This document shows positions 9,822 to 41,599 of a DNA stretch of 64,000 nt, one piece after another. The first letter of the stretch is position 1; each line of letters starts with the position of its first letter. The position numbers were made by a program, and so were the translations under genes. The notes below the pieces were generated by a model. It was not told the origin of the DNA. It did not search any database and saw only the letters and a program-made list of their open reading frames with translations. Origin of the DNA: Thermoanaerobaculaceae bacterium (GTDB taxonomy: Bacteria; Acidobacteriota; Thermoanaerobaculia; Multivoradales; UBA5704); assembly GCA_963717295.1 (NCBI GenBank), contig OY970330.1, positions 5,227,717 through 5,291,716 on the forward strand. The letters run 5' to 3'.

Positions 9822-9860
9822 GACGCGCCCGGTGGAAGGAGAGTGCGGCGCGCGTCCGAA

Positions 9861-10584: not shown

Positions 10585-10599
10585 TCCACCACCTCATCA

Positions 10600-11965
10600 A
10601 TGTCCACCACGGAAGAAGCTCCTCGTGGAGGGCCGCGACCAACTCGGGGAGATCCTCCTCGTCGGCCAGCAGGCGGACGGTCGGAGCGGCGACACCTTGC
10701 AACACCAGCCGCGGCTCGAAACCGGCGCCCGCGGCGAGAGCCCGCTCCACCAGCTCCGGCGACGTCGCGAAATCCTCCGAGACCAGCGACACGACGCACC
10801 GGCCGCGATGGTCATCCAGACCTCGGCGGAGCTGCCCACGGCCGCCAGCAGCGCCGCGTGGACGTCGGAGAGCCGGTCCTCCGATCGAGAGCGAGCTCGC
10901 CCTTCGGCGTCGAGCGTCAGGAGTGCCGGCCGGAAACGCTCGCAGACCTCCTCGAGGCTCGGCGAACAGCCCTTCCCCATCCTTGGAATCCGTGGCGAGC
11001 GCGGAGATCGAGATGCGCGTTGGACCGGCAGGCGATCGACTTGACGACCGGCGGCGCCTCCGGATCGCGGCGGCCGATGATCGTGCCCTCCGCCTCCGGA
11101 TGCCGGGAGTCCAGAATGCGGATCGGGACGTTCGCCCGGCTGGCCGGCCCCAGCGTGCCGTAGTGCGGCTTCTTGGACCCCGAGCAGGAGAGCTCCAGCG
11201 CCTCGGCGAACGAGAGCGTGCGCACCCGCCGGGCTCCCGGGTAGAGCCGGCGGATCGGCGGTGCGCATGCCGTCCACGTCGGTCCAGATCTGCACCTCCT
11301 CCGCGCCCAGGGCGGCGCCGACGATGGCGGCGGAGAAGTCCGAACCCTCCTTGCCGAGCGTCGTGGTCACCCCCTGGAGATTGGCGCCGACATAGCCGCC
11401 CACCACCGGCACCGTACCCTGCGCGCAGCAGCGGCAGCAGGGCCGAGCGCATGCGGGCGTTCGTCGGGCCGTAGATCGGCCGGGCGCGGGTGAAATCGTC
11501 GTCCGTCACCATCACCCGCCGGCAGTCCACCCAGGAGGAGTCGATGCCGGCGTGAGAGAGAGCGAACGAGAGAATGGCGCTCGCCAGCAGCTCGCCGTAG
11601 CCCGCGATCGTATCGGCCGCCTTGGGCGAGAGCGAACGGGCCGCCATGATCTCGTCGAGCCGCGTCCGCAGCTCGTTGAACCACGGATCGAGCATCGCAT
11701 CCAGAGCCGGCCGGCCCCCGGGAGGCACCACGGCATAGGCCTCGCGCCGGTGATACAGCTCGATCTGATCGAAGGCGGAATGGACCCTCTCCGCATCCCC
11801 CGCGGCCGCCGCGGCGGCGCCCGCCAGGAGATTGCGCGTCGTCAGCGCCATCGCCGACACCACCACCACTGGCTGGCGCTCCTGCCGGCCGCGGATGATC
11901 CCGCGCACCCGGCCGATCGCCTCGGCATCGTTGACCGAGCTGCCGCCGAACTTCATGACGATCAT
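10600..11965 (-). pseudogene. lysC: aspartate kinase, multiply frameshifted
   Basis: MIVMKFGGSSV N-terminus at 11965. The VVGGYVGA..TTLGKEGSDFSAAIVGAALGAEEVQIWTDVDG, LSFAEALELS...NVPIRIL and ACT-domain pieces lie in different frames. The exact 3' end near 10600 is uncertain. Confidence 0.6.
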
Positions 11966-14499: not shown

Positions 14500-14830
14500 G
14501 GTTTGCATTGAAGGAGCTCCATACCTTGTCCGGGTCGGAATTGCCAGGATGATACTTGGATGCCTCAGAGAGGGCTTTGCAAGGCCGGCTCGGGGCACAC
14601 CTCCCCCAAGCGAGCACCAGGCTCGGCATGGCCCTCCGGCGGGCGATGAGGCTGTCAAAGAACCTAGCCGCTCCTCTATCCAGCCACGAACGGTAAAGCC
14701 GGCGGGAAGCATCCGGCAGGAAACGGCGCGCGCCGATCTCCTCGCCTCAACCGCTCGGACGCCTCCCGAAAGGCGCCGACGAAGGCGGCATAGATCTCGT
14801 AGAGAATAGGAGCCAGAGTCTTTCGGCCTG
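14500..14830 (-). repeat. copy A (inverted) of a ~260-330 bp module: conserved 3' coding end plus ~100-bp trailer
   Basis: Minus strand encodes ...LYEIYAAFVGAFREASERLRRGDRRAPFPAGCFPPALPFVAG-stop, then trailer ...ggttctttgacag...cgcccgccggagggccatg.... Homologous to 25241-25590 and 25911-26290. The end of one arm of the agtcttctaataagactctggctcc hairpin lies at 14806-14824. Confidence 0.6.
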
Positions 14831-14833
14831 CCG

Positions 14834-15064
14834 ATGACCTCACGCGTGCTGGAATTCGTGCCCAACGAGCGCATTGCCTGGGATGCCAGGGGCCCCGGCG
14901 TTCTCGCCTATCATGCCTGGCTGATCACGCCGACCCCGACCGGCTGTCACGTGCTCACCGAGGAGCGCCAGCACGGTCGCATCGCCTGGCTCCAAAGCGT
15001 CGTACTACCCAACCGGATGCACTACAAACACCAGATCTGGCTCGAAGGGCTGAAGGACAGTTAG
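14834..15064 (+). pseudogene. SRPBCC/polyketide-cyclase-like C-terminal fragment
   Basis: 76-aa ORF ...VPNERIAWDARGPGVLAYHAWLITPTPTGCHVLTEERQHG... resembles the C-terminal half of SRPBCC proteins. No N-terminal half upstream. Confidence 0.4.
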
Positions 15065-23956: not shown

Positions 23957-24110
23957 TTACCTTAGCGCGGCAAGGCCCAACTGAATCGCGTTTTCGACGG
24001 TTTCATACTCCTCTTCGGCATCGAACTCCGGGTGTCCGCCACCCTGCCGCCCTCCACGGAAACGATGACGTAGTGTAGGACAATCCCGGCCACGCGTGCT
24101 CGCGGTCGAC
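23957..24110 (-). pseudogene. 3' fragment of a JAMM/MPN (Mec+-like) gene, paralogous to 34574-35038
   Basis: ~83 bp (24038-24120) nearly identical to 34661-34743 and encoding ..YVIVSVEGGRVADTR... A divergent, frame-shifted C-terminus (PEFDAEEEYETVENAIQLG versus RERFEEEEIVSG) follows. Confidence 0.5.
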
Positions 24111-24401
24111 GGAATCGAGCTGATGGATCCGGGCAAGCGCCGCGACCGGTTGACCGTCTGGCTGGCAGGTGAGCTTCCGGCACGGTTCGCCGGGCGCATT
24201 CTCGACGTCGACTCTCGCATTGCCGACGCCTGGGGAGTCGTCATGGCTCGTGGACAAAAAGCTGGACTGAATCTGAGATCCATGGACGCCTTCTTCGCAG
24301 CCACCGCGGAGGTCCACCGGTTGACACTGGTTACCCGCAATGTCGAGCACTTCAAAGAGTTGGGCACTCCTCTCGTGAATCCGTGGCAAGGAAGCTCATA
24401 A
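24111..24401 (+). pseudogene. VapC (PIN-domain toxin) C-terminal two-thirds, no N-terminus and no vapB
   Basis: GIELMDPGKRRDRLTVWLAGELPARFAGRILDVDSRIADAWGVVMARGQKAGLNLRSMDAFFAATAEVHRLTLVTRNVEHFKELGTPLVNPW aligns to VapC residues ~45-130. Directly abuts the JAMM fragment. Confidence 0.55.
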
Positions 24402-24408
24402 CAGGGAC

Positions 24409-24924
24409 ATGAGGCTGGCCCAAAAAATTCAGTCGTTCGCCGACCGGAGCGATGCCTTGTTGGACGAGCTGGAGGCGATGGAGCCCGGCAAGCTCCACGC
24501 CAGGCCTCTGCCGGGAAAGTGGACCATCCTGGAGATCGTCGAGCACATCGTCCTGGCGGAACGGGTGGTCCTCCAAGGGCTCCCCGAGCCCTCCCAGCTT
24601 CAGGCCGTCAAGCCCGGCCTGAAGGACCGCGTCCGCTATCTGCTCGTCCTGTTCGTCTTGAGGGCCAACATCCCTGTGGGAGTCGGCTCCCCGGCAGGCA
24701 ACCGGGACCTGGCCGAGCTTCGCGGCCTCTGGAACGAAGACAAGGCCTGGGTGTTGGCCTACGTCACCCGCTTCGGATCCCGGGGTCTCAAAAGAGCCAT
24801 CCTGCACCACCCCGTGACCGGCCCGATCAACGTCAAGCAAGCCATCACTCTGAGCCGAGCCCACCTCGACCGGCACATCCGTCAAATCCGAAGGCTTCAG
24901 CGGCTTACCACACCAGTCTTCTAA
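24409..24924 (+). CDS. DinB/YfiT-like (DinB_2) putative metal-dependent hydrolase
   Basis: 171 aa with the DinB_2 pattern GKWTILEIVEHIVLAER. The ORF ends ...LQRLTTPVF immediately before the hairpin agtcttctaataagact (24914-24935). Confidence 0.55.
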   Translation: MRLAQKIQSFADRSDALLDELEAMEPGKLHARPLPGKWTILEIVEHIVLAERVVLQGLPEPSQLQAVKPGLKDRVRYLLVLFVLRANIPVGVGSPAGNRDLAELRGLWNEDKAWVLAYVTRFGSRGLKRAILHHPVTGPINVKQAITLSRAHLDRHIRQIRRLQRLTTPVF

Positions 24925-24960
24925 TAAGACTCTGGCTCCCTACGCTAAGCTGCCCCTCAG

Positions 24961-25235
24961 ATATCTGGGGATGACGGCTCGTATCCATAGATACGGTCCA
25001 TATCTGGGAACGATGGCTCATATCCACAGATACGGCCCATATCCCCGGATGACAGTCCATCATCTCCAGACACGCGGCATATCTGGGGATGACAGCTCGT
25101 ATCCACAGATACAATCCACATCTCGGGGCGATGGCTCATATCCCCAGATACGGCCCATATCCGCGGATGACAGGCCATCATCTCCAGATACGCGGCATAT
25201 CTGGGGATGATGGCGTATATCCCCAGACAATGGCC
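24961..25235 (+). repeat. tandem array of seven 39-40-bp degenerate repeats (organised as a ~118-bp unit x2.3)
   Basis: Units ATATCTGGGGATGACGGCTCGTATCCATAGATACGGTCC / ...GGGAACGATGGCTCATATCCACAGATACGGCCC / ATATCCCCGGATGACAGTCCATCATCTCCAGACACGCGGC repeat in the same order. Contiguous, with no unique spacers. Confidence 0.75.
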
Positions 25236-25240
25236 AAATC

Positions 25241-26290
25241 GCACGCCGCTACCAAAGCCGCGCGCAGAGCGTTCTACGAAATCTACGCCGCCTTCGTCGG
25301 CGCCTTCCGGGAGGCGTCCGAGCGGTTGAGGCGAGGAGAGCGGGGCGCGCCGTTTCCTGCCGGATGCTTCCCGCCGGCTTTACCGTTTGTGGCTGGCTAG
25401 AGGGAGCGGGACAAGGTTCTTTGACAGTCGCATTGCCCGCTGGAGGGGCCATGTCGCTGAGCTCGGTTGCTCGCTTAGGGAAAAGTGTGCCCTTTTCACC
25501 CATGAAGAATCGTTCTCAGAGGCTTTGGCCGCCAGTTTGTTTGCCCGACGGCCTCCAAGAAAACGCGGCCTACCACGCCTACAGCGGCCTACCACGCCAG
25601 TCTTCTAATAAGACTCTGGCTCCTATTTCGGCGCAACCGACAACTTGGAGTTTGCCGCCCGCCTTCGCGGTAAAGATGTCGGACCGATTCGCTATGCCAC
25701 GGTCGAGACGGTAACTTTTTCTCCCATACCTTGCTGGGCCCATCTGTCGCCTGAAGTCTATCGGGCCCGGAACGTGGAGATGGTCGAATCCATCGAGGCC
25801 GAAGCTGCGCGGGAAAGAGAACGCACCGGCGCCTGCGTGCTCGGAGCCAAAGCCATTCTTGCCAGCGATCCGCTCCATCGCCCATCCTCCTTGGCCCGAT
25901 CGCCAGCACCTTGCGTCCACGCCGCCACAAAGGCTGCAAGGAGAGCGTTCTACGAAATCTACGCCGCTTTCGTCGGGGCCTTTCGGGAGGCGTCAGAGCG
26001 TCTGAGGCGCGGCGACCGCAACGCACCCTTCCCCGCCGGCAGCTTCCCGCCAGCCCTACCTTTCGTCGCTGGATAGAGGCATCGCCGATGCTCTTTGACA
26101 GTTTCACCGCCCACCGGAGGGCCAGATTCCGAGGCGAAGGCCCGCGAAAGGGGGAACGTGTATCCGGTCAGGCTCTCTTGAGAGGTTTCCAGAGCACCAA
26201 ACTGCCCCCGGCCAAGTTTCGAACCAGCCCAATGGGGCTGGCCTTCAGGAAGTCACTGGCACTTGTTTGGCCGGGCCTGCAGCGGACGGC
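25241..26290 (+). repeat. copies B (25241-25590) and C (25911-26290) of the conserved 3'-coding module plus trailer, separated by a second copy of the hairpin repeat (25591-25622)
   Basis: Both encode ...AATKAARRAFYEIYAAFVGAFREASERLRRG(E/D)R.APFPAG.FPPALPFVAG-stop. DNA differences between copies are mostly synonymous. Copy C retains ~90 upstream codons (MEFAARLRGKDVGPIRYATVETVTFSPIPCW...). Confidence 0.6.
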
Positions 26291-26386
26291 TAACGCCTCA
26301 CGCTGAGGCGCTCAAACATAGAGCTATCAACCCAAAGTTGAAGCGGCAGCCCAAAGAATAGGCCCTCGCATGATCGCTATCAAGCC

Positions 26387-27085
26387 TCAATGTGGCGCCT
26401 TTGAGGGCAGTACAGTCGTCGCTTTGCTTGTATTCTGGCGTACCACTCTGAATGTAATAGAATCCAGAGACACCCAGCTTGGGTTGCCTTGCTCAAGGAT
26501 GACCTCGCCACTACTCAAGATGTCGACACGACCGTACGCATTCGGATAAGTCGAAACTACAAACAATTGACGGAAATTCGGTCGATAATCGATTGGCAAC
26601 GTAAAAATCGCACCACCCCTCCCTTCCACAAGACCTCGTAGATGAACCAGCCCGAATGAGTCTTTGAAAAAACTAGGAGGGTTATAGGGGGTCTCGCTAT
26701 TTTTTTCATAAGGCTTCCACCCTTGGGCAAGTTGAGGAGCGATCCAATCATCGTCAAGCTTGAGATCTTTAAGCCTCTTAGCCGCTTGGTCTCTATAAGT
26801 GCTCACGGCGTCGGAGTCCTCCTTCACACGAGTCAAGGCGCGATTGGCTTCCTCGACATATCCCTGGCCAATTGAGGATCTGACAGCCTCGGCTGCAGCC
26901 GTTTTGGCTTGACTCTTTATCATCTGGGAAATACCAAGCGCGCCAGCCAGGGAAAGAACCAACGCCACAAACGCAAGGACCCCAATGGACTGATTACGCG
27001 CTTTCTCGGCCTCGCTCCTAGCTTCATCCTTCGCCTTCGTGACCTCACGTTCAATCGCTAGCTGGATTTCTGGCAATATGTCCAT
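26387..27085 (-). CDS. hypothetical single-pass membrane protein with coiled-coil region
   Basis: 232 aa, TM helix IGVLAFVALVLSLAGALGI. Lower GC. Same strand as, and downstream of, the Shedu-like gene. Confidence 0.45.
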   Translation of the reverse strand: MDILPEIQLAIEREVTKAKDEARSEAEKARNQSIGVLAFVALVLSLAGALGISQMIKSQAKTAAAEAVRSSIGQGYVEEANRALTRVKEDSDAVSTYRDQAAKRLKDLKLDDDWIAPQLAQGWKPYEKNSETPYNPPSFFKDSFGLVHLRGLVEGRGGAIFTLPIDYRPNFRQLFVVSTYPNAYGRVDILSSGEVILEQGNPSWVSLDSITFRVVRQNTSKATTVLPSKAPH

Positions 27086-27247
27086 TCATCCTCCAGTATT
27101 TTCTGCGGCCAACGCTGTGGCGGCTCAGCGCGCGGCGCCAGCTGTCCGCTGGAGCCGCTTGGTTGGCCGAATCAAGGTCGCCTGCTCGCACATATGGCTA
27201 TGGCTCCACTGCGCTGCCTTTCTCCCACTCTATAAGGGGCCCACCGG

Positions 27248-28306
27248 CTAGCCCACAGAGCCGAGCCTTCGCATCCACCCTTCAAGTAAGGCATCGTACG
27301 TCATGATTGTGATTCCATTGAGGCTGTTATTCATCTCGTCGAGCCGGATTCGATCACCAAGTGAAAGGTCCGCTCGTCTGCCGGCTATTATTCTGAAAGA
27401 GCAAGACAACCGCTCATGCATTACGCTGCTCAACATCTCGGAATATAAGCCAGAGAGGCTTCTCGTTGATCTTATTTTTCTCGACGCTGCTAGATCTTCC
27501 GTCATGAAGGACTCCACCGTGTGCCTGAAGTACTCGCCATTGCGCGAATGCCATGCCTTCCAGTCTTGAACCTGTCGGAGAGCATGCGTTAAAACCGCCG
27601 CAGGATCGCCTGCTTTCGTAAAGAGCTTACGCGACGGTTTCTCCAGCTCTATCAAGGTCGCGTGGATTCCCACGTCGTTTGTCCAAGTGCGATAGCCAAG
27701 CACCACAAAGTCCGTGACGAAGCTGTTTCCTAAGGGACACTTACTGAGAGCATATCCTCCTTCGTAGAATAGATCTAGAAGAAATGCGTTTGACCATAGA
27801 AATCTGTGAACTTCTTCTTCTGAGCCTTGCAAGCAACGATCAAGCTCCATGAGTACGGACCTGATGCGACGAGCGCTGGCCGTCTCCTCGTCCTCCATCT
27901 CGTCGAGGTAGGTGACCATATCGCCCGCAGCTTTAGATGTGATGTGTTGCATGTACCGACGCTTACGCGGCCGATTATCGAGCACATCGTCGGACCAAAC
28001 GGCGATTTTTACATCCTCCCTCGAACCGCCACTCGGTAAATAAGAATCAAGCAGACGCCCCCTCGATACTAGGCAATATGAATCGATCACTCTGACGTCG
28101 TAGGCGCGACACAACAGCGGGCTGTCCTCGATGTAAGCGATGAAGAACGACCATCTTATGCGCATCAACTCGGCTAAGCGGCGGTTCGTTGACTCGTGGA
28201 GGGAAGATGTACGTCGCTCGGTGAAGAAGATAAGCGCCGTCTCCACATCTTCCAGTTGGGTTTCAAAGGTCGCGTCGTTCAGCACTTTGAATTCGGTTAG
28301 AGTCAC
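27248..28306 (-). CDS. Shedu-like protein (DUF4263 PD-(D/E)xK nuclease domain)
   Basis: 352 aa, GTG start 28304-28306. C-terminal core ...GNSFVTDFVVLGYRTWTNDVGIHATLIELEKPSRKLFTKAGDPAAVLTHALRQVQDWKAW matches the DUF4263 pattern (D...E-x-K...Q..W). Confidence 0.6.
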   Translation of the reverse strand: MTLTEFKVLNDATFETQLEDVETALIFFTERRTSSLHESTNRRLAELMRIRWSFFIAYIEDSPLLCRAYDVRVIDSYCLVSRGRLLDSYLPSGGSREDVKIAVWSDDVLDNRPRKRRYMQHITSKAAGDMVTYLDEMEDEETASARRIRSVLMELDRCLQGSEEEVHRFLWSNAFLLDLFYEGGYALSKCPLGNSFVTDFVVLGYRTWTNDVGIHATLIELEKPSRKLFTKAGDPAAVLTHALRQVQDWKAWHSRNGEYFRHTVESFMTEDLAASRKIRSTRSLSGLYSEMLSSVMHERLSCSFRIIAGRRADLSLGDRIRLDEMNNSLNGITIMTYDALLEGWMRRLGSVG

Positions 28307-28509
28307 GGTTACGCCTATCCTATCCTAGTGTATGTTCGGCAACGTCACCAGCAGTGATCATAGCCTGACGATCGAGCGGGCCCGGACACTGGCGGCTTTG
28401 CCTTCACCAAGCTCGACTTTTCTTCGTCGGCCAACGCTCGAAGCTAACCGGCGGGATCGTGCGATAGCACGGTATCCGTCCGTTTGAGCGCAGGGGTTGA
28501 ACGACGCTC

Positions 28510-29517
28510 TTACGGAGCAAGCTTTAGGAAAAAGTCATTCATCTGAGTCTCCAAAATTTCTGCAGGTTCCTCCCCTCTGGCCTTCATTCGGATCATCTCC
28601 TTAAGATCTCCGTCTGAAAGAAACAGAATCATGGTTTCGGATATCATCCATGCCCGTCGACGAGCTCTCACCGCAGACGTAGAGGGAGCGTGTCGGCTAC
28701 AAAGAAACCCGAAGGCGCGCCGAGCCTTAGGGTAAAGATATTGCTGAAGTGACTCGACTTCTGTTTGACTAATCGGATCAGTGTAGTTTTTAAACTCAGC
28801 CACGAGCAACCGAGAAGAGTGCTGATACTTAATGCTATCCCAGAAGAGGCTGCCAGGCCCGATAGGAAATATGGCATCTCGTCGGTCAAGGCCGTCCTCC
28901 GACCAGTTCTGAATCTTTGGTGGGCGCAGGTGGGGAGAGAAGGTGAAAGATAGGATATCTATGCAGACACGCTCATACTCCGTGGCCCCACCTCTTCCTG
29001 GGCTGATAGCCTCAAGCCGCTGGATCAAACTCTCCCCCTCACCAACTTCCGACCGACGACTCGAAGCATCCTCAGCGACCTCCTCCAATAGCTTCTGCGC
29101 TTGAAAAATCTTATGGAGGTTCTGTCGAACTGATTCGTGTTTTGCGATCAGGCTCTCTAACTTAGGAGCATCCCATACCTCTAGACCAGAGGGTAGGCGT
29201 GCTTCCTCTTGCACACGAAGCTCAAGAGGCACCGAGAGCATCAAGAGAGCCCGATCGGCACCTTGAAGTGCCATGCCCCGGAGAAGCTCATCAACAATGC
29301 TCTGGAGCATGGCGGGAGAGGATAGTCTGCGCTTGAGTAACTTGACTTGGACGACCCAATGTTGACCTTCGGGAGCGTCAAACTTCCAGTCCACTCCCCG
29401 GTCAGCTCCTCCAGGATTACCAAGCTGCCTGATATTCAGAAATCCCTCAGCCGCAAGTACGCTGCCGCAGAGTATCTCAAACTGCCGCCAATCGAGTTTC
29501 TGGAAGTCGTAGTTCAT
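28510..29517 (-). CDS. two-domain nuclease-like protein: N-terminal Mrr-cat restriction-endonuclease fold plus C-terminal PD-(D/E)xK-like region
   Basis: DWRQFEILCGSVLAAEGF...GGADRGVDWKF...HWVVQVKLLK matches the Mrr_cat pattern. C-terminal D...LLVAEFKNY resembles a second REase-like core. ATG 29515-29517. Confidence 0.55.
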   Translation of the reverse strand: MNYDFQKLDWRQFEILCGSVLAAEGFLNIRQLGNPGGADRGVDWKFDAPEGQHWVVQVKLLKRRLSSPAMLQSIVDELLRGMALQGADRALLMLSVPLELRVQEEARLPSGLEVWDAPKLESLIAKHESVRQNLHKIFQAQKLLEEVAEDASSRRSEVGEGESLIQRLEAISPGRGGATEYERVCIDILSFTFSPHLRPPKIQNWSEDGLDRRDAIFPIGPGSLFWDSIKYQHSSRLLVAEFKNYTDPISQTEVESLQQYLYPKARRAFGFLCSRHAPSTSAVRARRRAWMISETMILFLSDGDLKEMIRMKARGEEPAEILETQMNDFFLKLAP

Positions 29518-30098
29518 GGTGTGTGCTAGCGACGTTCAACCTTTAGCTGATCTTATGCGCACCACTCAAGAATGCTTATCGGCGGCCTATCAGGCCGCCT
29601 GAATCTCAAATATGTAGACTCTAAACTGTTCAATCCATTCGGCTTAGATTTTACGCCGATTTCTTAGGCTCGTCAATGCGGCGGCGATCCGTCGTGTGGG
29701 CATCCGGGGCAGCCTTTACGTAGTACTCCATCAAGGATCGTCCTAACTCGTTGAAAGGATGAGACTCAGGCTGGCTTTAGTCGGATAGGCCGACCCGCAA
29801 AAGGCGCTTAGGCGACGGCGCTATACATTCCAGGGCGAGGCGGGAGCGAAGACGGAAGCCATTTATTTCTAGCAGCTTGGAGCGAAGGATGGCGAATAGG
29901 TCGAGGGTGTCGTATAGGTCCGAAGCGGTCGGCTAAGCAGGGCGCTCAAGGAACGCTAAGTACTCCCCACCGTAAGTCACCTGACATATCCTGCCGGAGG
30001 AGTCGGCCGGTGACCCAGCCTATCAGCGAGCATCCTCGACTTCCTTCTCTCTTCGATACCCACGTCCCGGGGACAGACTGACCGTCACGCCGGGCCAA

Positions 30099-30312
30099 AG
30101 GTCCGTGATCCCTCAGCCCAGGCCAACGGCCTGGGTACGCAGACCCCTTGTCGCATAGGGGCGCCCCAACGGGGCGCGATACTTGGCCCCGCACCACGGA
30201 CCCTTGCCGGCAGCCGAATCGATGTCGATGAGGTATCGCGACCCTTCAGGCCGCCTCTGCGGATCGTCTCCCGAACCCAGGCCGTTGGCCTGGGCTCAGG
30301 AATCACGGCCCC
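30099..30312. repeat. MITE-like element: ~48-bp inverted repeats each containing the hairpin cccaggcc-aacg-ggcctggg, flanking ~115 bp
   Basis: 30099-30147 ggtccgtgatccctcagcccaggccaacggcctgggtacgcagacc versus reverse complement of 30262-30312. An internal hairpin gcgcccc-aacg-gggcgc is also present. Confidence 0.45.
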
Positions 30313-30409
30313 TTGGGCCGGCGTGGCACCAGCGCCGACGCGAGTCATCAACCTTTGCGACGATGGAGGCGAGACCCAGGAGGGGCCGGCTGGGGCGGTC
30401 TTGCGGGTC

Positions 30410-30449
30410 TCCCCTCTTCTCCCGGGGGTGGGAAGCCGGGAGAAGAGGG
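30410..30449 (-). terminator. strong hairpin cccctcttctcccgg-gggtgggaag-ccgggagaagagggg 3' of htpG
   Basis: 15-bp perfect stem 17 nt after the htpG stop. Member of a 3-copy hairpin family (also at 55040-55078 and 57722-57775, all ending in GTGATGAGG). Confidence 0.5.
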
Positions 30450-30465
30450 GTAGGAGTGATGAGGC

Positions 30466-32418
30466 TTACGCCCCCCGAACCATCAAATCAGCCACCGCCT
30501 TGTTGAAGCGCACGGGGTCGGGCAGCTCGCCGCCCTCGGCGATGAGGCCGTAGCCGAAGAGGAGCTGGGCGTAGTCTTCGAGCACCGGATCGTCGGCGTT
30601 CTTCTCGAAGTGCTCGCTCATCTTGGCCAGGATGTCGTGCTTCGGGTTGAGCTCCAGGATGCGGCGCTGCTTCGGGCCGCCTCCCTTGCCCTTCTGGAGG
30701 AGCTTTTCGAGCTGCGGGCTGTAGTCGTGCTCGGCGCCCACCAGGCAGACCGGCGAGCTCGTGAGACGGCTGGTGAGGCGCACCTGCTTGACCCAGGTGT
30801 CGAGCTTCTTCTGCAAGGCCTCGAGCAGCGGCTTCAACTCCTCCTCCTTGGCCTTCAGCTCCTCCTCGGTCTGCTTCTTCTCCTCCTCGTTGCCGAGCGA
30901 GACCGTGCCCTTGCCCGCCGACTTCAGCTTCTTGCCGCCGTACTCGTTGAGCGACTGGGTGAGCAGCTCGTCCACCGTGTCCACCAGGTAGAGCACCTCG
31001 TAGCCCTTTTCCTTGAAGGCTTCGAGGTTGGGCGAATTCTCCACCTGCGAGCGCGTCTCGCCCGTCAGGTAATAGATCTCGTTCTGCCCTTCCTTCATCC
31101 GCTCGACGTACTCCTTGAGCGAGGTGAGCTTCTCGGGATCGTTCGACGACTCGAAGACCAGCAGCTCCAGCAGCTTCTCCTTGTTCTCGTAGTCCGCGCT
31201 GGTGCCCTCCTTGATGGCGCGGCCGAACTCGCCCCAGAACTTGAGGTAGGTCTCCGGCTCCTTCTCCTTCATATCGGTGAGGACGTCGAGGATCTTCTTG
31301 GTCAACCCCTTGCGGATGAGGGTGATGAAGCGGTCCTGCTGCAACATCTCGCGGGAGACGTTGAGCGCCAGGTCGGGGGAGTCGACGACGCCGCGCACGA
31401 AGCGCAGATACTGCGGGAGCAGGTCCTCGCACTTCTCCAGGATCTGGATGCGCTTGACGTAGAGCTGAAGGCCGGGCTTCGAGGCCACGTAATAGAGGTC
31501 GTACGGCGCCTGCGCCGGGATGAACAGCAGGGCCTGATACTCGATGCGTCCCTCGGCCTTGTAGGAGATGACCTTGAGCGGCTCCGTCCAGTCGTGGGCG
31601 ATGTGCTTGTAGAACTCGTTGTAGTCCTCGGGCTTCACCTCGGACTGCGGCCGGGTCCAGATCGGCTTCATCGTGTTGAGAGTCTTCTCTTCCAGCGGCA
31701 TGACGGGTTTCTCGCCCGTCTCCTTCTCCTTGGCGAGATCCTCCATCTCCGGGTCCTTCTCGGCCTTGAGGATGATCGGGTAGCTGACGAAGTCCGAGTA
31801 GCGGCGGACGATGCGGCTGATCACCCAGCGGTCGGAGAAGTCGTCGAGGCCGTTCTCCTTGTCCTCGGCCTTGAGGTAGAGGGTGACGGAGGTGCCGCGG
31901 GCGGCTTTCTCGGTCTCCTCCACGGTATAGGTGCCGTCGCCGGTGGACTCCCAGCGGGTGGCGGCGGTCTCGCCCGCGCGGCGGGTCACCAGCACGACGC
32001 GCTCGGCGGCCATGAAGGAGGAGTAGAAGCCGACGCCGAACTGGCCGATCAGCTCCGCGATCGACTGCTGCGACTCGCCCTTCTTCATGCGGTCCACCAG
32101 CTCGCGGGTGCCGGACTTCGCGATGGTGCCGATGTTGGCGATGACCTCGTCGCGGCTCATGCCGATGCCGTTGTCGTTAATGGTGAGGGTGCGCAGGTTG
32201 CGGTCCGCCTCAATGCGGATCTGAAGCTCATCTCCGCCTTCGAGCAGCTCGGGATGAGTCAGCGCCTCGAACCGCAGCCGGTCGATCGCGTCGGACGCGT
32301 TCGAGATCAGCTCGCGCAGGAAGATTTCCTTGTTCGAGTACAACGAATGGATCATCAGGTCGAGGAGCTGCCGGGTTTCGGCCTGGAACTGCAGGGTCTC
32401 GACGGTAGCGGTAGCCAT
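30466..32418 (-). CDS. htpG: molecular chaperone HtpG (Hsp90)
   Basis: 650 aa, N-terminus MATATVETLQFQAETRQLLDLMIHSLYSNKEIFLRELISNASDA matches the HATPase_c GHKL fold. Confidence 0.9.
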   Translation of the reverse strand: MATATVETLQFQAETRQLLDLMIHSLYSNKEIFLRELISNASDAIDRLRFEALTHPELLEGGDELQIRIEADRNLRTLTINDNGIGMSRDEVIANIGTIAKSGTRELVDRMKKGESQQSIAELIGQFGVGFYSSFMAAERVVLVTRRAGETAATRWESTGDGTYTVEETEKAARGTSVTLYLKAEDKENGLDDFSDRWVISRIVRRYSDFVSYPIILKAEKDPEMEDLAKEKETGEKPVMPLEEKTLNTMKPIWTRPQSEVKPEDYNEFYKHIAHDWTEPLKVISYKAEGRIEYQALLFIPAQAPYDLYYVASKPGLQLYVKRIQILEKCEDLLPQYLRFVRGVVDSPDLALNVSREMLQQDRFITLIRKGLTKKILDVLTDMKEKEPETYLKFWGEFGRAIKEGTSADYENKEKLLELLVFESSNDPEKLTSLKEYVERMKEGQNEIYYLTGETRSQVENSPNLEAFKEKGYEVLYLVDTVDELLTQSLNEYGGKKLKSAGKGTVSLGNEEEKKQTEEELKAKEEELKPLLEALQKKLDTWVKQVRLTSRLTSSPVCLVGAEHDYSPQLEKLLQKGKGGGPKQRRILELNPKHDILAKMSEHFEKNADDPVLEDYAQLLFGYGLIAEGGELPDPVRFNKAVADLMVRGA

Positions 32419-32636
32419 GAATGTCCTCCTGGGTCTTCAAGATCTCGGGCCCAATTGCACAGAAGACGCAGGGCCACGGTTTGACCCTTCGAACGCTACG
32501 CACTGGGCTGGGAATTCCCCCTGGCCGGCCTCCGATGCGGAAGTCTGACGGCAGGGGCATCAAGCAAATATTAGTCAACGACGCGCAGGATTGCAAGCTG
32601 CGTAAGCCTGTAAGATCCTGAGAGAGGGAGGACGCG

Positions 32637-33140
32637 ATGGCCTGGGGACGAAAACGAGAAGGTGGCGGAGGATGCGTGGGCCTGCTGGCCCTGCTGCTGG
32701 CGGTCGTGGCTTTGGTGGTGGCCTGGGCGGCGTACAAGCGCACGGGCGGCGAGCTGGGGACAGTGTTGAAGGACGCGGGAGTCGAGAGCCGCGGCGCGGC
32801 CGGAGCCGACTCGGATCTCGCGGAATGGCGGGAGGATCTGGCCCAGGCCCGCGACCGGCTCCTGGGCCGCCGGGCCGAGGTGGCGGGGGACCGCAACCTG
32901 GATCAGGTACGCCGCGACGTGGAGCAGGTGCGGACCAGCCTGGAGCAGGCGTATCGCAAGGCCGGCGACAAGGCCGGTGCCGCGAAGGAGGAGTGGAAGG
33001 ATCTCGACGCCGATCTTCAGCGACTGGAGGGGCAACTCAAGGACGGCGGCTCCAAGGCCCTGGCCTCCCTCGACAAGGCGATCTCGAAGCTCCGCGACGC
33101 CACGAGCCCCAAGAAGGACGAGGAAGATCGCCGCCGCTGA
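32637..33140 (+). CDS. hypothetical membrane-anchored coiled-coil protein
   Basis: 167 aa, one TM helix (LLALLLAVVALVVAWAA) then charged helical region. Confidence 0.4.
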   Translation: MAWGRKREGGGGCVGLLALLLAVVALVVAWAAYKRTGGELGTVLKDAGVESRGAAGADSDLAEWREDLAQARDRLLGRRAEVAGDRNLDQVRRDVEQVRTSLEQAYRKAGDKAGAAKEEWKDLDADLQRLEGQLKDGGSKALASLDKAISKLRDATSPKKDEEDRRR

Positions 33141-33146
33141 CCTCCC

Positions 33147-34577
33147 TCAGTACATCGGTACCGAGGGATCCACCTGGAGGCTCCAGGCGTGGATTCCGCC
33201 GGCGAGGTTGATGGCGCGGGAGTAGCCCATCTGGCGCAGGAAGTTGACCGCCCGGGCCGACCGCATACCCGAGTGGCAGAGGGTCACGATGGTGGACGCC
33301 GGATCGAGCTCGCCCAGCCGGTCCTGAAGCTCGGGCAGGGGGATCAGCGTCGAGCCTTCGACGCGGCAGATCTCCCACTCCGGGGGATTGCGCACGTCGA
33401 GGACGGTCAACGGCCGCCCCTCGTCCATCCAGGCCTTGAGCTGGGGAGCCGAGATCTCGAAGGCCGCCTCCACTTCCTCGGCGTGCGGCTCGACGCCGCA
33501 GAACTGGTCGTAGTCGATCAGCCCGGTCTGTGTCGGGTGCTCGGAGCAGATGGGGCAGTTCGGGTCCTTGCGCAGCTTGAGCTCGCGGAACTTCATCTTC
33601 AGGGCGTCGAACAGCAGCAGGCGGCCGATCATTGGGTCGCCGGCGCCGACGATCAGCTTGATCACCTCGTTGGCCTGAAGCGAGCCGATGATCCCCGGCA
33701 GCACCCCGAGCACGCCGCCTTCGGCGCAGGAGGGGACGAGCCCCGGCGGCGGCGGCTCCGGGAAGAGGCAGCGGTAGCAGGGGCCGCGCGCCCCCCAGAA
33801 GATCGAGACCTGCCCCTCGAAGCGGAAGATGGAGCCATAGACGTTCGGCTTGCCCAGCAGCACGCAGGCGTCGTTGACCAGGTAGCGGGTCTGGAAGTTG
33901 TCCGTGCCGTCGACGACGATGTCGTAGTCCCGGAACAGCTCCAGGGCGTTCGAGGAGTCGAGGCGCAGCTCGTGGGGGACGATCTTGATGTGGGGGTTGA
34001 GGTCGCGCAGCCGGTCCGTCGCGGCCTGGATCTTCGGCCGGCCCACGGACGAGCGGCCGAAGAGCACCTGGCGGTGGAGATTGCTCTCGTCGACGACGTC
34101 GAAGTCCACCATGCCGAGCGTGCCCACGCCCGCCGCGGCCAGGTAGAGGCCGAGCGGCGAGCCGAGGCCGCCGGCGCCGACCGTCAGCACCTTCGCCGCC
34201 TTGAGCTTGCGCTGCCCGGCGGTGCCCACCTCGGGCATGATGAGGTGCCGGCTGTAGTGGCGGATCTCGGCCGGCGAAAGCTCGGGCAACTCGGCACCTC
34301 CGGCGCCCCCCGCGATCGACGGGATGATCGACAGCGTGTCGCCCGCGGCGATCGGCGTCGCCTCCTTCTGGAGGTGGCGCACGTCCTCGTCGTTGAGGAA
34401 GAGGTTGACGAAGCTGCGTAGCGCGCCTTCGTCGGTGTACAGGTGGCGCTGGAGCGCCGGATGCCGCCGGGTGAGGTCCTGCATCGCCTCGCCGACCGTG
34501 GCGCCCTCGACGACGACGTCGCTCTGCTCGCCGCTGAACCGGCGCAGGGGGGTGGGAATCTGAATCGTGACGCTCAA
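33147..34577 (-). CDS. in-frame fusion of a CysO/ThiS/MoaD-like sulfur-carrier protein (ending ...IIPSIAGG) to MoeZ-type E1 adenylyltransferase with C-terminal rhodanese domain
   Basis: TTG start 34575-34577 with AAGGAGG 7 nt upstream. Carrier domain (residues 1-93) ends in GG. It continues with no stop codon as AGGAELPELSPAEIRHYSRHLIMPEVG...VLTVGAGGLGSP (ThiF/MoeB fold) ...CHSGMRS (rhodanese). The 898-aa ORF-track entry is this gene plus an out-of-frame upstream extension. Confidence 0.75.
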   Translation of the reverse strand: MSVTIQIPTPLRRFSGEQSDVVVEGATVGEAMQDLTRRHPALQRHLYTDEGALRSFVNLFLNDEDVRHLQKEATPIAAGDTLSIIPSIAGGAGGAELPELSPAEIRHYSRHLIMPEVGTAGQRKLKAAKVLTVGAGGLGSPLGLYLAAAGVGTLGMVDFDVVDESNLHRQVLFGRSSVGRPKIQAATDRLRDLNPHIKIVPHELRLDSSNALELFRDYDIVVDGTDNFQTRYLVNDACVLLGKPNVYGSIFRFEGQVSIFWGARGPCYRCLFPEPPPPGLVPSCAEGGVLGVLPGIIGSLQANEVIKLIVGAGDPMIGRLLLFDALKMKFRELKLRKDPNCPICSEHPTQTGLIDYDQFCGVEPHAEEVEAAFEISAPQLKAWMDEGRPLTVLDVRNPPEWEICRVEGSTLIPLPELQDRLGELDPASTIVTLCHSGMRSARAVNFLRQMGYSRAINLAGGIHAWSLQVDPSVPMY

Positions 34578-35038
34578 CGTGCCGCCTCCTTCTGGAAACC
34601 GGCAAGAGCGCCGGAAACGATCTCCTCTTCCTCGAACCGCTCGCGGTCGTCGGAGAGGCGCCAGCTCCGGGTGTCCGCCACCCTGCCGCCCTCCACGGAA
34701 ACGATGACGTAGGACAACCCGGGCCAGGCGTGCTCGCGGTCGAACTCGCTCGGCCGCGCCGGATGGTCCGGATGGGAATGGTAGTAGCCCACGATATCCA
34801 GGCCTTGGGCGCGCGCCTCCTTGCTGGCGGCGAGCACGGTCTCGGGGCTGATCAGGTACCGGTTGTGCCGGCTCTCCTGCCGCTCGTTGCTCACCGGCAG
34901 GCTGCGCTCGACGGCGGTCACCCCTGTCGCGGCAACGAAACGGCCGATCAGGAAGCCGCAGCACTCTTCGGGGTAGCTGGCGGCCGCATGCTCCGTGGCC
35001 GCCTGCAAGTGGCTGGGCGTGATCTCCAGGCGAAACAT
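34574..35038 (-). CDS. mec: JAMM/MPN+ metalloprotease, Mec+-like
   Basis: 154 aa, EECCGFLIG...HSHPDHPARPSEFD (JAMM motif). TGA overlaps the TTG of the downstream carrier-E1 fusion (TTGA). Confidence 0.75.
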   Translation of the reverse strand: MFRLEITPSHLQAATEHAAASYPEECCGFLIGRFVAATGVTAVERSLPVSNERQESRHNRYLISPETVLAASKEARAQGLDIVGYYHSHPDHPARPSEFDREHAWPGLSYVIVSVEGGRVADTRSWRLSDDRERFEEEEIVSGALAGFQKEAAR

Positions 35039-35041
35039 GGT

Positions 35042-35995
35042 CTAGCTCTCCTCCCAGAACCGGTCGGACAGGTACTTGTCCGCTCCGTCGCACAGGACGG
35101 TAACCAGCGTGCCCTGCTGCAAATTCGTGGCGACCTCCAGGGCCGCCGCGACGTTGGCGCCCGACGAGATGCCCACCAGCAGGCCCGTCTCCCGCGCCAG
35201 GCGCTTCACCATGGCGTAGGCCCTCTCCGTCGGCATCTCGAGAGTCTGGTCCGCCAGCGCCGGATCGTAGATCGGCGGCACGATGGCTGTCGCCATGTGC
35301 TTCATCCCTTCGAGGCCGTGGAAGGGCGAGTCGGGCTCCATGGAGATCAGGCGCACCGCCGGGTTCTGCTCCTTCAAGAAGCGGCCCACACCCATGAAGG
35401 TGCCGCTGGTGCCCAGGCCGGTGACGAAGTGGGTGATCTGCCCTGCCGTCTGCTCCCAGATCTCCGGGCCGGTGGTGCGGTAGTGGGCGCGCCAGTTCTC
35501 CGGGTTCGAATACTGGTCGAGGTAGGCCCAGCGCTCGGGCTCCTCGGCCACCAGCCGGCGGGCTTCGAGGATCGCGCCGTCGCTGCCGGAAAGCGGATCG
35601 GTGATCCGCAGCTCGGCGCCGTAGGCCTTGAGGATGCGCTTGCGCTCGGGGCTCGCGCTCTCCGGCAGCGCCAGGGTCACCGGAATGCCCAGCGCCGCGC
35701 CGATCATGGCGTAGGCGATCCCCGTGTTGCCCGAGGTCGCGTCGAGTAGCCGCCGGCCGTTCGTGAACAGCCCGCGGCGCAACGCGTCCATGACCATCGA
35801 GAGCGCCGGCCGGTCCTTCACCGACCCTCCGGGGTTGGCCCACTCCGCCTTGGCGTAGAGCCGCACGCCCGTCCTGCCCGTGAGCTCCGAGAGGTCGATG
35901 AGCGGCGTGTTGCCAATCAGCTCGAGGAGAGGAACGGGCCGCCGCCGGTCCTGGACAGGAGCCAGATGTTCGAGGGAGAGGGCGACCGTCCGCAT
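35042..35995 (-). CDS. cysM: cysteine synthase (CysM/CysK family, PLP-dependent)
   Basis: 317 aa, ...EWANPGGSVKDRPA...TSGNTGIAYA... matches the PLP-dependent cysteine synthase fold. Directly upstream of mec. Confidence 0.85.
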   Translation of the reverse strand: MRTVALSLEHLAPVQDRRRPVPLLELIGNTPLIDLSELTGRTGVRLYAKAEWANPGGSVKDRPALSMVMDALRRGLFTNGRRLLDATSGNTGIAYAMIGAALGIPVTLALPESASPERKRILKAYGAELRITDPLSGSDGAILEARRLVAEEPERWAYLDQYSNPENWRAHYRTTGPEIWEQTAGQITHFVTGLGTSGTFMGVGRFLKEQNPAVRLISMEPDSPFHGLEGMKHMATAIVPPIYDPALADQTLEMPTERAYAMVKRLARETGLLVGISSGANVAAALEVATNLQQGTLVTVLCDGADKYLSDRFWEES

Positions 35996-36105
35996 GGCCG
36001 AATGAACGTAGCAGACGGGGGACGAGGTGTAAAGGATAGTAAGTCAGTCACGAATCCTTGCCGGACCCTGTCCGGGATATCCTTGCAGGAAGGGGGAAGA
36101 TCCAT

Positions 36106-36751
36106 GAACGACACTCCGCACACCGGCGACGACCGGGTTCCGCCGGGCCAGTACGTCACCGACAAGTGGCCGGTCCTCACCTATGGCCGCACACCTCAGG
36201 TGGAACGGGAGAAATGGACCTTCCGCGTCTTCGGCCTGGTGGACGCGGAGACGACCCTCTCCTGGAAGGATCTCCAGGCCCTGCCGCGCGCCCGCGTCAC
36301 GGCCGACTTTCACTGCGTGACCCGCTTCTCGACGCTGGACAACGGCTGGGAAGGCTTCTCCACCCGCGATCTCCTGAGCCGCGTCCGGGTCCACCCCGAG
36401 GCCTCGCACGTGATGGTTCACTGCTACGGCGGCTACACCACCAACCTTCCCCTGGAGGATTTCCTCTCCGAGCACGCGCTCTTCGCCGACACCCACAACG
36501 GCAAGCCGCTCCTTCTGGACCACGGCGGACCCCTGCGGCTGGTAGTGCCTCACCTCTACGCCTGGAAGAGCGCCAAGTGGGCGAACGGCGTCGAGCTTCT
36601 GTCGGAGGACCAGCGGGGCTTCTGGGAGGAGAACGGCTACCACACCTACGGCGATCCCTGGCTGGAAGAGCGCTTCAGCTCCCAGGAGACCACCCAGGCC
36701 TACCAGGTGCGCCGGCGGGCGAAGGAGCTGGGGATCGTGCCGGAGGAGTAG
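36106..36751 (+). CDS. sulfite-oxidase-family molybdopterin oxidoreductase (small YedY/YuiH-like)
   Basis: MNDTPHTGDDRVPPGQYVTDKWPVLTYG...FHCVTRFS...HLYAWKSAKW. True ATG at 36106. The ORF-track start at 35966 is an extension. Confidence 0.7.
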
Positions 36752-36760
36752 GCCTGCGAC

Positions 36761-36955
36761 TCAGGAGTCGAGGTCGATCGCCGCCCTGATCCCATCTTCG
36801 ACGGCCAGCAAGTCCGGCTCGGGTAGCGCCCCAATCGCCTCAATGACTTCGATTCCTGCTTCCTCTAGATCTCGGTCCAAGTCGAATTCCGTCCCCGCAT
36901 ACTCCTGGGCAAAGGCTGCGATCTCGGCGTGACGCTTGTAGGCCTTCGAGTCCAT
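36761..36955 (-). CDS. small acidic hypothetical protein (64 aa)
   Basis: MDSKAYKRHAEIAAFAQEYAGTEFDLDRDLEEAGIEVIEA... No confident family. Confidence 0.3.
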   Translation of the reverse strand: MDSKAYKRHAEIAAFAQEYAGTEFDLDRDLEEAGIEVIEAIGALPEPDLLAVEDGIRAAIDLDS

Positions 36956-37000
36956 GGCTCTGGCCCTCCCGCCAAACTGTATGTCATTCCGGAGTTGCGG

Positions 37001-37190
37001 CTAAGAGGGTTCTCAAAAGTGGTTGACGACGACGCCTATGGCGCCAGGGATTGAAATCACTTGGCTACTCTCTGTAGTCCCTACGGGACATGGGAAGGAA
37101 TTGCAGTCCCGGAGGGGACTTGGAGTCGGTAGCCAGGCGATTTCAATCCCTGGCGACGTAGGCGTGGCTGCCGCTCCTTTTGAGACACCC
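37001..37190. mobile_element. MITE copy 1 (~190 bp) with ~55-bp terminal inverted repeats containing GCCAGGGATTGAAATC
   Basis: Left arm ...ctcaaaag...acgcctatggcgccagggattgaaatcacttggctac and right arm (revcomp) ...acgcctacgtcgccagggattgaaatcgcctggctac. Central gtcccnnnnnnnngggac hairpin. Second copy at 57517-57703. Confidence 0.6.
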
Positions 37191-37282
37191 TCTAAAGACT
37201 CTCCCCCGCCCCTGCGGGCAGTTCAGACCCATCTCTCTTCTGCTATGATTCACCTGCTGTAACCGGTTTCATCCTGGAAGCC

Positions 37283-41599
<4,317 letters not shown>

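Follow-up and report, generated by a model that had tools for sequence, protein, structure and literature searches.

Genomic setting of the tandem array

The window, by which we mean the whole stretch of 64,000 nucleotides analysed, contains a tandem array at positions 24961..25235 (+). The array is surrounded by pseudogene fragments in a low-GC variable island, its own flanks having 58-62% GC. A variable defence island has its left edge at the array, where there is also a rearrangement breakpoint. The window was compared with two other loci, namely L012, a metagenome contig with ~93% nucleotide identity, and L002, from another Thermoanaerobaculia MAG, with a diverged version of the array. At all three loci the array is located downstream of the 3' end of a gene, and RayT-like remnants in the same orientation are found 0-400 bp to its left. 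No candidate binding-protein, rep or par gene was found near the array at these loci: Pfam and PADLOC scans returned no Rep among the neighbours, and no ParA/ParM-type partition operon was present among them. Likewise, neither integrase nor conjugation genes were present among the ORFs scanned in the island.

To the left of the array lies a DinB_2 gene (24409..24924, +; Pfam DinB_2, E=1e-14), in which the native C-terminus, ...LQRLLA in homologues, is swapped for ...LQRLTTPVF. When the gene was compared with nine homologues and with the DNA of the relative L019, the divergence was confined to the last five codons, which have been overwritten. The exchanged end is part of a 45-bp direct repeat. 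Copy 1 (24895..24939, +) consists of the last 12 native DinB_2 bases and a foreign segment with a hairpin and the core AAGACTCTGGCTCC, and copy 2 (25579..25623, +) contains the hairpin at 25599-25615 and the core at 25610-25623. The two copies are 93% identical over 45 nt (repeat D10), and the 27-mer CCAGTCTTCTAATAAGACTCTGGCTCC, which holds the hairpin, has exactly two occurrences (24913-24939 and 25597-25623) where 0 were expected. The copy-1 hairpin, AGTCTT-CTAAT-AAGACT, is located at 24915-24931 (DNA fold -4.0 kcal/mol, z=-2.7); the first-pass annotation had placed it approximately, at 24914-24935, and the second hairpin exactly. The same annotation had the second hairpin follow an ORF ending ...LQRPTTPVF. 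This ORF (25387-25608) crosses the non-coding tail of a transposon remnant and is spurious, not a gene, and its likeness to DinB_2, limited to the last ~10 codons, comes from the 45-bp repeat.

RayT-like transposon remnants around the array

The right end of the array is adjoined by a segment that had been described as a module copy and is actually a pseudogene fragment from the 3' end of a RayT-like Y1 transposase gene. This fragment B (25243..25400, +) comprises the last ~52 codons, as determined from repeats D4 and I1, alignment and tblastn with the homologue P0047, and its non-coding tail (25401..25578, +) can be aligned to the tails that follow RayT-like genes in the window, L014 and L015. 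Further right, fragment C (25630..26076, +) retains only the C-terminal 143 aa, with no HUH or Tyr catalytic domain, and its tail (26077..26275, +) has a degenerate core CTGGCACTTGTTTGG at 26256. A third 3' fragment, A (14673..14822, -), is 95% identical to fragment B (I1), and both are preceded by the 18-bp junction AAGACTCTGGCTCCTATT. On the left side of the array, a RayT-tail core (AGACTCTGGCTCC) with a 21-bp linker (24927..24960, +) is conserved in L012 along with the array (94% by blastn, with alignment).

Fragment C has 227 homologues, one of which is named 'REP-associated tyrosine transposase', and its longer homologues match NCBIfam NF047646 (E=1e-10). The RayT-like homologues are ~307 aa long and have a HUH motif (HFH), a W-Q motif, a Y-motif and a long C-terminal tail. 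While the homologues P0047 and L017 carry the HUH and catalytic Tyr domain, the fragments in the window begin after the Y-motif and lack it; the window copies are therefore pseudogenes of the RayT family. In motifs and tail, the homologues are similar to the long forms of RayT/TnpA_REP with a C-terminal tail (subclass 2.3-like, PMC6006769), whereas the window copies differ in lacking the catalytic half and the tail repeat is not a classical REP. This tail repeat is dispersed on the same strand and ~150 bp long, with 8 copies in 12.7 kb of L014. The hairpin is not shared across this repeat family: when we considered it as a conserved structural end, RNAalifold on 10 RayT-like tails predicted no consensus pair. 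The hairpin repeats are terminal pieces of decayed RayT-like elements, and their bracketing of the array is incidental and not functional.

Since the array adjoins a RayT tail on the left and a RayT gene fragment on the right, it could be suspected to belong to the mobile element, either as an end structure or as a binding site of the C-terminal domain. However, no array is present in the full-length element L017 or in the truncated copies L014, L015 and L018. The family-specific C-terminal domain was predicted as two long helices (pLDDT 75, pTM 0.35) that contain no HTH and match no fold in the PDB, and for the same reason we rejected it as a DnaA-like HTH that reads the boxes of the array. 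This origin of the array is largely refuted, and we regard it as very improbable.

Architecture of the array

The array consists of seven 39/40-bp units in the order a b c a' b' c' a'', with a higher-order unit of 118 bp repeated 2.3 times, as the first-pass annotation had described. TRF detected a period of 39 with 6.8 copies at 24961-25227 and a period of 118 with 2.2 copies (89% matches) at 24961-25214, and a repeat search found 118-nt copies starting at 24961 and 25079 with a mutual identity of 90% (D6). At an offset of 118 bp the self-identity of the array reached 0.85, but only 0.53 and 0.55 at offsets of 39 and 79 bp, respectively, and this peak fits the layout of the units. Over 24044-25337, which spans the entire array, the window matches a contig from an independent Logan assembly (ERR11594404) with 100% identity, so the array is not an assembly artefact.

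The 39-bp period is present, but it is not the smallest one, as each unit is a pair of ~19.5-bp half-units, each with an ATC-N4-GAT dyad. The resulting 14 half-unit sites are spaced 19, 20 or 21 bp apart and follow the consensus (C)AT-ATC-YNNR-GAT-R-AC-GGCYC, in which the N4 centre alternates between TGGG and C(A/C)CA. On average they repeat every 19.6 bp, which is out of phase with the helix.

Because 118 bp is not a multiple of 3, the array is non-coding, and a coding tandem repeat was rejected since the frame is lost from one 118-bp copy to the next. When the 95-aa ORF that spans the array, itself spurious, was searched against a database of 5.8 billion proteins, no other array called as a gene came up. 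The units are contiguous without unique spacers, which makes the array not CRISPR-like, as already noted in the first pass, and no cas genes were found among the ORFs scanned nearby. A template or variable repeat of a DGR was also rejected, since the positions at which the two 118-bp copies differ show no adenine specificity and the neighbouring ORFs scanned include no reverse transcriptase. An Rfam scan of 24000-27000 at permissive E-values gave just sub-threshold miRNA-like hairpin matches, and a promoter and terminator scan detected nothing within the array.

Single units fold weakly, at -2.3 to -8.4 kcal/mol, most of them no better than shuffles, whereas the entire region shows strong self-complementarity (z=-4.1 and -6.0). 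Considering that the unit hairpins are weak and that changes in the centre are uncompensated between X and X' arms, the conserved feature is probably a short dyad and not a stable stem.

These properties bear on a REP/BIME-like cluster, in which the units would be small palindromic hairpins of ssDNA or RNA that are made, mobilised or targeted by a Y1 (RayT-type) transposase, like E. coli BIME-2. The self-complementarity of the region, the alternating orientation of the half-unit centres (TGGG/CCCA), the position 3' of a gene at three loci, which is the usual REP location, and the nearby RayT-like remnants would all suit such a cluster. Several minus-strand half-units start with CGTC or TGTC followed by AT..., recalling the CGTC-tagged REPs (PMC3733652); these tags precede ATC in only some half-units, and there is no GTAG. 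On the other hand, the stems, at 3-5 bp, are shorter than the 8-9 bp or more of known REPs, most unit hairpins fold no better than shuffles, and the arms lack compensatory changes. The consensus of the unit or half-unit occurs nowhere else in the window, nor in the remainder of L012 and L002, in contrast with dispersed REPs, and the units are absent on both sides of the full-length RayT-like gene in L017 and from the RayT-like copies of L014 and L015. In addition, the neighbouring RayT-like elements have another terminal repeat (…AAGACNCTGGCTCCTNTTCTG), and the copy number of the array, unlike that of BIMEs, is stable between genomes. We thus consider a REP/BIME-like cluster doubtful.

Related arrays and their conservation

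Pattern scans of ~600 Gb of genomes and a metagenome collection gave 12 matches, among which only L002 and L012 were homologous arrays and L005 was a possible analogue at the level of the motif; the remaining nine were coding or chance matches, with L010 and L011 near-identical to each other. Three instances of the array were found in total, and because the window and L012 are orthologous, they are effectively two independent observations. In viral contigs, the array unit gave one chance AT-rich match and the RayT-tail core none, and blastn against 72,556 plasmid and 50,697 phage records gave no match to the array. We found nothing on the ATC-N4-GAT motif in the literature.

In L012, the order and boundaries of the seven units are as in the window, and L002, where the gene context differs, also has 14 half-units. 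The first pass had likened the array to minisatellites, in which copy number varies; with the same seven units in a ~7%-diverged relative, the copy number is instead stable. Positions 1583-1893 of L012 align to 24927-25238 of the window with 94% identity (blastn), and the array itself is 93.8% identical. Between the same loci, the genes on either side, ALDH and htpG, were 79.1% and 88.8% identical at four-fold degenerate sites, so that the array diverges more slowly (pooled Fisher p=8e-5). This comparison is to be read with care, as concerted evolution inside the array complicates rate arguments (the 118-bp copies differ at 5 positions within L012, at 12 within the window and at 8-10 between the genomes) and the excess conservation could stem from recent exchange between lineages.

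Among the 42 half-units of the three loci, all spaced 19-21 bp apart, ATC is invariant (42/42) and the G, A and T of GAT are kept in 41, 38 and 30, respectively, whereas other positions vary widely. Between the window and L012, substitutions numbered 3/84 in the arms, 6/135 in the spacers and 8/56 in the N4 centre (centre versus rest, Fisher p=0.0098); against the more distant L002, the numbers were 3/42, 15/67 and 4/28, respectively. Between close relatives, conservation is highest in the dyad arms and lowest in the N4 centre.

This pattern can be set against a functionless minisatellite, that is, a palindromic motif amplified by slippage or unequal crossing-over in a hot spot that accumulates junk, and common to close relatives by descent. 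The surrounding pseudogene fragments in a low-GC variable island, the higher-order repeats and concerted evolution typical of satellites, and the mere three instances in the scanned collection would be expected of such a sequence. However, the substitutions are not uniform across the unit, ATC is kept in every half-unit, conservation of the array exceeds that of four-fold degenerate sites, and the copy number is equal in two genomes, with 14 half-units in a third that is distant and differs in context. A functionless satellite is consequently doubtful in our view.

In L005, from Pyrinomonadaceae, another Acidobacteriota lineage, 12 (T/C)ATC-N4-GAT-GAA boxes occur with strict 21-bp phasing. They are a possible motif-level analogue of the array, although, coming from a pattern search, the motif could be unrelated. 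In L005 the boxes read TGTGGATGA, the X' half-units of the array read (A/G)TATCCACA and the reversed X half-units TCATCCCCA; the half-units resemble TTATCCACA, two of them with at most one mismatch, and 14 boxes is a size seen in high-GC origins. This would fit a cluster of DnaA boxes that forms a chromosomal origin or a datA-like titration site. Yet none of the boxes is perfect, only 2/14 are within one mismatch, the count over the whole window does not exceed that of shuffles, and the key DnaA positions (CCACA) fall in the fast-drifting N4 centre. Moreover, tblastn found no dnaA in the window or L002, no origin-marker genes are nearby, the cumulative GC skew has no minimum at 25 kb, no AT-rich unwinding element is present, and the site is inside a variable island. 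A DnaA-box cluster is accordingly very improbable.

A putative protein-binding platform

We favour, with a probability of roughly 0.35, a reading in which the array is an iteron- or centromere-like platform of sites for a predicted sequence-specific binder of double-stranded DNA. The 14 regularly spaced sites would form a cis-acting platform, each site probably being bound by a protein dimer that recognises the ATC-N4-GAT dyad and its partly conserved 3' flank. The centre-to-centre distance of the arms, 7 bp, is short for a classical HTH dimer. The binder would be encoded elsewhere in the genome, and multivalent, cooperative binding may coat the ~275-bp segment, by likeness to SopB on sopC or ParR on parC. 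Candidate roles of the complex are segregation, replication control, titration and insulation. RayT-like elements would have inserted at or beside the array, leaving the decayed ends that were first described as hairpin repeats.

The sopC site of F has 12 repeats of 43 bp, each with an inverted repeat, and parC of pSK41 consists of tandem 20-bp repeats; R1 parC was also compared. Like these plasmid partition centromeres, the array has contiguous head-to-tail non-coding repeats, each with a short dyad, within the range of 10-14 sites and a period of ~20 or ~40 bp. It differs in having no similarity to any plasmid record and in its chromosomal context, with no adjacent parA/parB or parM/parR operon. 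Among iterons, P1 oriR/incA has 5+9 repeats of 19 bp, R6K has 7 of 22 bp and lambda ori has four 19-bp dyad sites, and iterons are usually ~22 bp apart, against the mean of 19.6 bp here. The array is similar to replication-control iterons in its 19-21 bp sites and comparable copy number, and to lambda ori in its dyad character, but it has no initiator gene, AT-rich unwinding region or flanking consensus DnaA box. The initial likening to plasmid or ICE iterons thus holds for the architecture, with 14 sites at 19-21 bp and an invariant dyad core, and fails for the plasmid or ICE link, as no rep, par or integrase gene is nearby and no plasmid or phage matches. No plasmid or phage match, Rfam family, rep/par gene or oriC signature backs a specific family.

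A more specific and distinctly speculative version is that the array is the cis-site of a new chromosomal system of Acidobacteriota, in which a predicted protein would read phased ATC-N4-GAT boxes (14 sites in the window and L002, 12 in L005) and build a nucleoprotein structure for segregation, replication control or demarcation of a hot spot of island integration. A candidate partner in L002 would be a 595-aa protein of ~11 tandem HTH repeats, encoded ~630 bp from the array there.

If the array is only a satellite, the surrounding hairpin brackets and short ORFs are still the debris of a highly decayed RayT-like transposon family, which litters these genomes, overwrites gene ends such as that of DinB_2 and coincides with rearrangement breakpoints. 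If the platform is real, Thermoanaerobaculia, a class that has hardly been studied, would have in the array a chromosomal counterpart to the centromeres or iterons of plasmids, retained by vertical descent. The array would then delimit a defence-island hot spot and could serve as bait for a new DNA-binding factor.

Organization of the tandem array

The seven-unit tandem array at 24961-25235, described in the first-pass annotation as a-b-c-a'-b'-c'-a'', proved to be real, with units of 39, 39 and 40 bp. TRF reported a period of 39 with 6.8 copies at 24961-25227 and a period of 118 with 2.2 copies (89% matches) at 24961-25214, a repeat search of the window returned two 118-nt copies with 90% identity, and the self-identity of the array reached 0.85 when offset by 118 bp, compared with only 0.55 at 79 bp and 0.53 at 39 bp. 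Because an independent Logan assembly of run ERR11594404 is 100% identical to window 24044-25337, neither the array nor its copy number is an assembly artefact. Anchored on ATC, each 39/40-bp unit divides into two half-units, giving 14 sites spaced at 20-19-20-19-21-19... bp with the consensus (C)AT-ATC-YNNR-GAT-R-AC-GGCYC. The 4-nt centre between the ATC and GAT arms reads TGGG and C(A/C)CA in turn, so that neighbouring half-units look inverted at the centre and direct in the flanks. Folded as DNA, the whole region shows strong self-complementarity (z=-4.1 for the plus strand and -6.0 for the minus strand), while single units are weak hairpins of -2.3 to -8.4 kcal/mol, most of them not better than shuffles. 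Since 118 bp is not divisible by 3, successive copies would fall in different reading frames, which excludes that the array codes for a repeat protein. No Rfam family matched the array region.

RayT-like debris around the array

The GC content of the window is ~70%, with two low-GC islands at ~13-19.5 kb and ~23-30 kb, the second of which contains the array. To its left lie a truncated PIN/VapC gene (24096-24401) and a DinB_2 gene (24409-24924). An 84-bp direct repeat (24026-24109 and 34665-34743; 48 identical nt followed by 35 nt at 91%) has its copies 10.6 kb apart, one preceding the truncated PIN gene and the other a ThiS-ThiF-rhodanese gene. The right side holds two 3' fragments from a single RayT-like (REP-associated tyrosine transposase-like, Y1) gene family (25243-25400 and 25630-26076) and, beyond them, a protein of 232 aa with no identity assigned. 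A third fragment, in the other low-GC island (14673-14803, minus strand), is 95% identical to that at 25243-25400. The RayT-like stretch there (14673-14822) is joined via the same 18-bp junction, AAGACTCTGGCTCCTATT, to an opposite-strand ORF (14805-15060, plus) read by eye as 5'-truncated SRPBCC-like.

Database searches gave 227 homologues of the fragment family, one of them carrying the name REP-associated tyrosine transposase; the longer ones contain the HFH (HUH), W-Q and Y-motifs and match NCBIfam NF047646 (E=1e-10). The related contig L017 has a full-length 307-aa gene (346-1266) that agrees with the long, C-terminally tailed TnpA_REP forms described in PMC6006769. The window copies are pseudogenes missing the catalytic half. 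In the related contig L014, the RayT-like gene is truncated at its 5' end by an IS110-family insertion. We rejected the reading of the array as part of a RayT element, which appears nearly untenable; in addition, the C-terminal domain of the family is predicted to be two long helices, with neither a DNA-binding fold nor a PDB match.

The array was also thought to be bracketed by a hairpin repeat. The hairpin-containing motif CCAGTCTTCTAATAAGACTCTGGCTCC occurs exactly twice in the window, at 24913 and 25597 (0 expected), within a 45-nt direct repeat of 93% identity, and its core AAGACTCTGGCTCC occurs three times, at 24926, 25610 and 14809 (minus strand; 0.04 expected). In related contigs the same core (…CCAAAAAGACNCTGGCTCCTGTTCTG) terminates a ~150-bp tail 3' of the RayT-like gene, so the bracket represents the ends of decayed RayT-like elements, that is, ordinary transposon debris. 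The tail is also dispersed on its own, with further copies in contigs L015 and L017 and eight same-strand copies in 12.7 kb of L014 (6861-12460), several of them tandem pairs. RNAalifold predicted no consensus pair in ten RayT tails, and the hairpin, which arose by local accident in the window copies, does not characterize the tail family. DinB_2 homologues and the DNA of the relative L019 end in …LQRLLA, whereas the window DinB_2 ends in …LQRLTTPVF; judging from these ends, its last five codons were overwritten by a RayT tail. Repeat copy 2 includes not only the foreign segment but also the 12 native DinB_2 bases that precede it, so it most likely arose secondarily by copying of junction 1. 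As such, the ORF ending …LQRPTTPVF before the second hairpin (25387-25608) is no gene but a by-product of the copied junction.

Homologous arrays and rearrangement

An IUPAC pattern derived from a single unit was used to search 185,579 species genomes and the JGI metagenomes, yielding two homologous arrays, L012 and L002, and ten other hits. Nine of these ten were coding or chance matches (L010 and L011 being near-identical). The tenth, Pyrinomonadaceae contig DATJGV010000143, contains 12 direct (T/C)ATC-N4-GAT-GAA boxes in strict 21-bp phasing (~1760-2030, minus strand, core TGTGGATGA-like) within the 590 bp that separate valS from an unknown 235-aa gene; this stretch, which has AT-rich flanks, resembles an origin or iteron region.

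Contig L012 (Ga0134121_10004213) is closely related to the window. By blastn, its positions 1-1512 match window 43173-41661 in inverted orientation (tRNA-Ser and ALDH, 93%), 1583-1893 match the array segment 24927-25238 (94%), 8196-8353 match 29537-29695, and 8586-11799 match 30375-33558 on the htpG side (93.6%). The tail core and linker are the same (34 bp in the window), as is the right end, …ATGGCCAAA. The DNA from the array to the htpG side is unrelated between the two genomes (4.3 kb in the window, 6.3 kb in L012), and the left flank differs too. In this 93%-identical relative, tRNA-Ser and ALDH lie on the other side of 24927-41660 and in opposite orientation; an inversion of this ~16.7-kb stretch relative to L012 is consistent with the alignments and would be the simplest reading. 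One breakpoint of it would lie at the RayT-tail core adjoining the array. Given the unrelated flanking DNA and the putative inversion, the array sits at a rearrangement breakpoint and delimits a variable (defence) island on one side.

The defence genes of this island in the window are Shedu SduA (27248-28306, minus; Pfam SduA_C 5.6e-14, PADLOC SduA 4e-19) and an Mrr-like nuclease (Mrr_cat; 28510-29517, minus) matching PADLOC candidate PDC-M36A; the orthologous island of L012 holds different genes. The spacer between the island and htpG (30466-32418, minus), which is followed by housekeeping genes, contains a 54-nt inverted-repeat pair in the window (30086-30139/30272-30325; 89% complementary, 132 nt apart) that is missing from L012. 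Farther right, a palindromic MITE/REPIN-like element of ~170 bp occurs in two mutually inverted copies 20.5 kb apart (37025-37194 and 57516-57684), with arms of ~70 nt containing …GCCAGGGATTGAAATC…, and the ~300-bp repeats at 37474-38626 correspond to four X25 domains within a 1438-aa pullulanase gene, an ordinary domain duplication.

In L002, a different Thermoanaerobaculia MAG, an amidohydrolase fragment and an M50 peptidase gene flank a diverged array that likewise comprises 14 half-units; a 35-aa RayT-like fragment is located ~370 bp left of this array. When all ORFs were compared by blastp, L002 shared nothing besides the array with the window or L012. About 630 bp from the array, L002 encodes a 595-aa protein (5721-7508, plus) composed of ~11 HTH repeats in tandem, each ~48 aa long (W..E....LG...D.EVA..LGIS...V..KR..LGIP.F), with no homologue in the window or L012. 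Speculatively, it is a candidate binder of tandem DNA repeats.

Constraint and possible function

Between the window and L012 the array is 93.8% identical, compared with 79.1% and 88.8% at four-fold degenerate sites of ALDH and htpG (pooled Fisher p=8e-5). Substitutions number 3/84 in the arms, 6/135 in the spacers and 8/56 in the centre (centre vs rest, p=0.0098); between the window and L002 the arms are again lowest (3/42, against 4/28 in the centre and 15/67 in the spacers), and ATC is invariant in 42/42 half-units of the three genomes. The two 118-bp copies differ from each other at 12 positions in the window and 5 in L012, compared with 8-10 between the genomes whichever copies are taken, which points to concerted evolution; no difference separates the two genomes in the terminal unit a''. 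Concerted evolution and the junk-rich location would suit a functionless minisatellite, but the invariance pattern does not, and we regard this reading as unlikely. Nor is the array a minisatellite of variable copy number, as L012 retains all seven units in unchanged order.

A REP/BIME-like cluster linked to Y1 transposases seems doubtful. The palindromic half-units alternate, partial CGTC/TGTC tags are present, RayT remnants lie nearby and the array is located downstream of genes. However, the array departs from REP/BIME in dispersal and stem length: no dispersed unit copies were found in the 64-kb window, the rest of L012 or L002, and the stems are only 3-5 bp. Moreover, the arms show no compensatory change, and the full-length element of L017 has no array beside it. 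A DnaA-box cluster or oriC is highly improbable, failing on every count: only 2/14 boxes are within one mismatch of TTATCCACA, the variable bases are the DnaA-critical ones, tblastn found no dnaA in the window or L002, and there is neither a skew switch nor an origin gene nearby.

The plasmid/ICE side of the iteron resemblance suggested initially was not supported, as plasmid and phage collections contained no similar sequence and no nearby gene is a partner for the array. In the way it would act, the array comes closest to F sopC, pSK41 and R1 parC, and the P1, R6K and lambda iterons, from which it differs in lacking their defining partner genes and plasmid context. Taken all together, this is a tandem binding-site-like array, conserved and constrained but orphan. 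Considering that the short dyad arms are invariant, the centre drifts, spacing is fixed at 19-21 bp, copy number is stable and the unit hairpins are weak, both a binding to the array and its purpose are inferred. The array may thus be an iteron- or centromere-like platform for sequence-specific recognition of double-stranded DNA at the 14 sites, a tentative reading to which we assign a probability of about 0.35.
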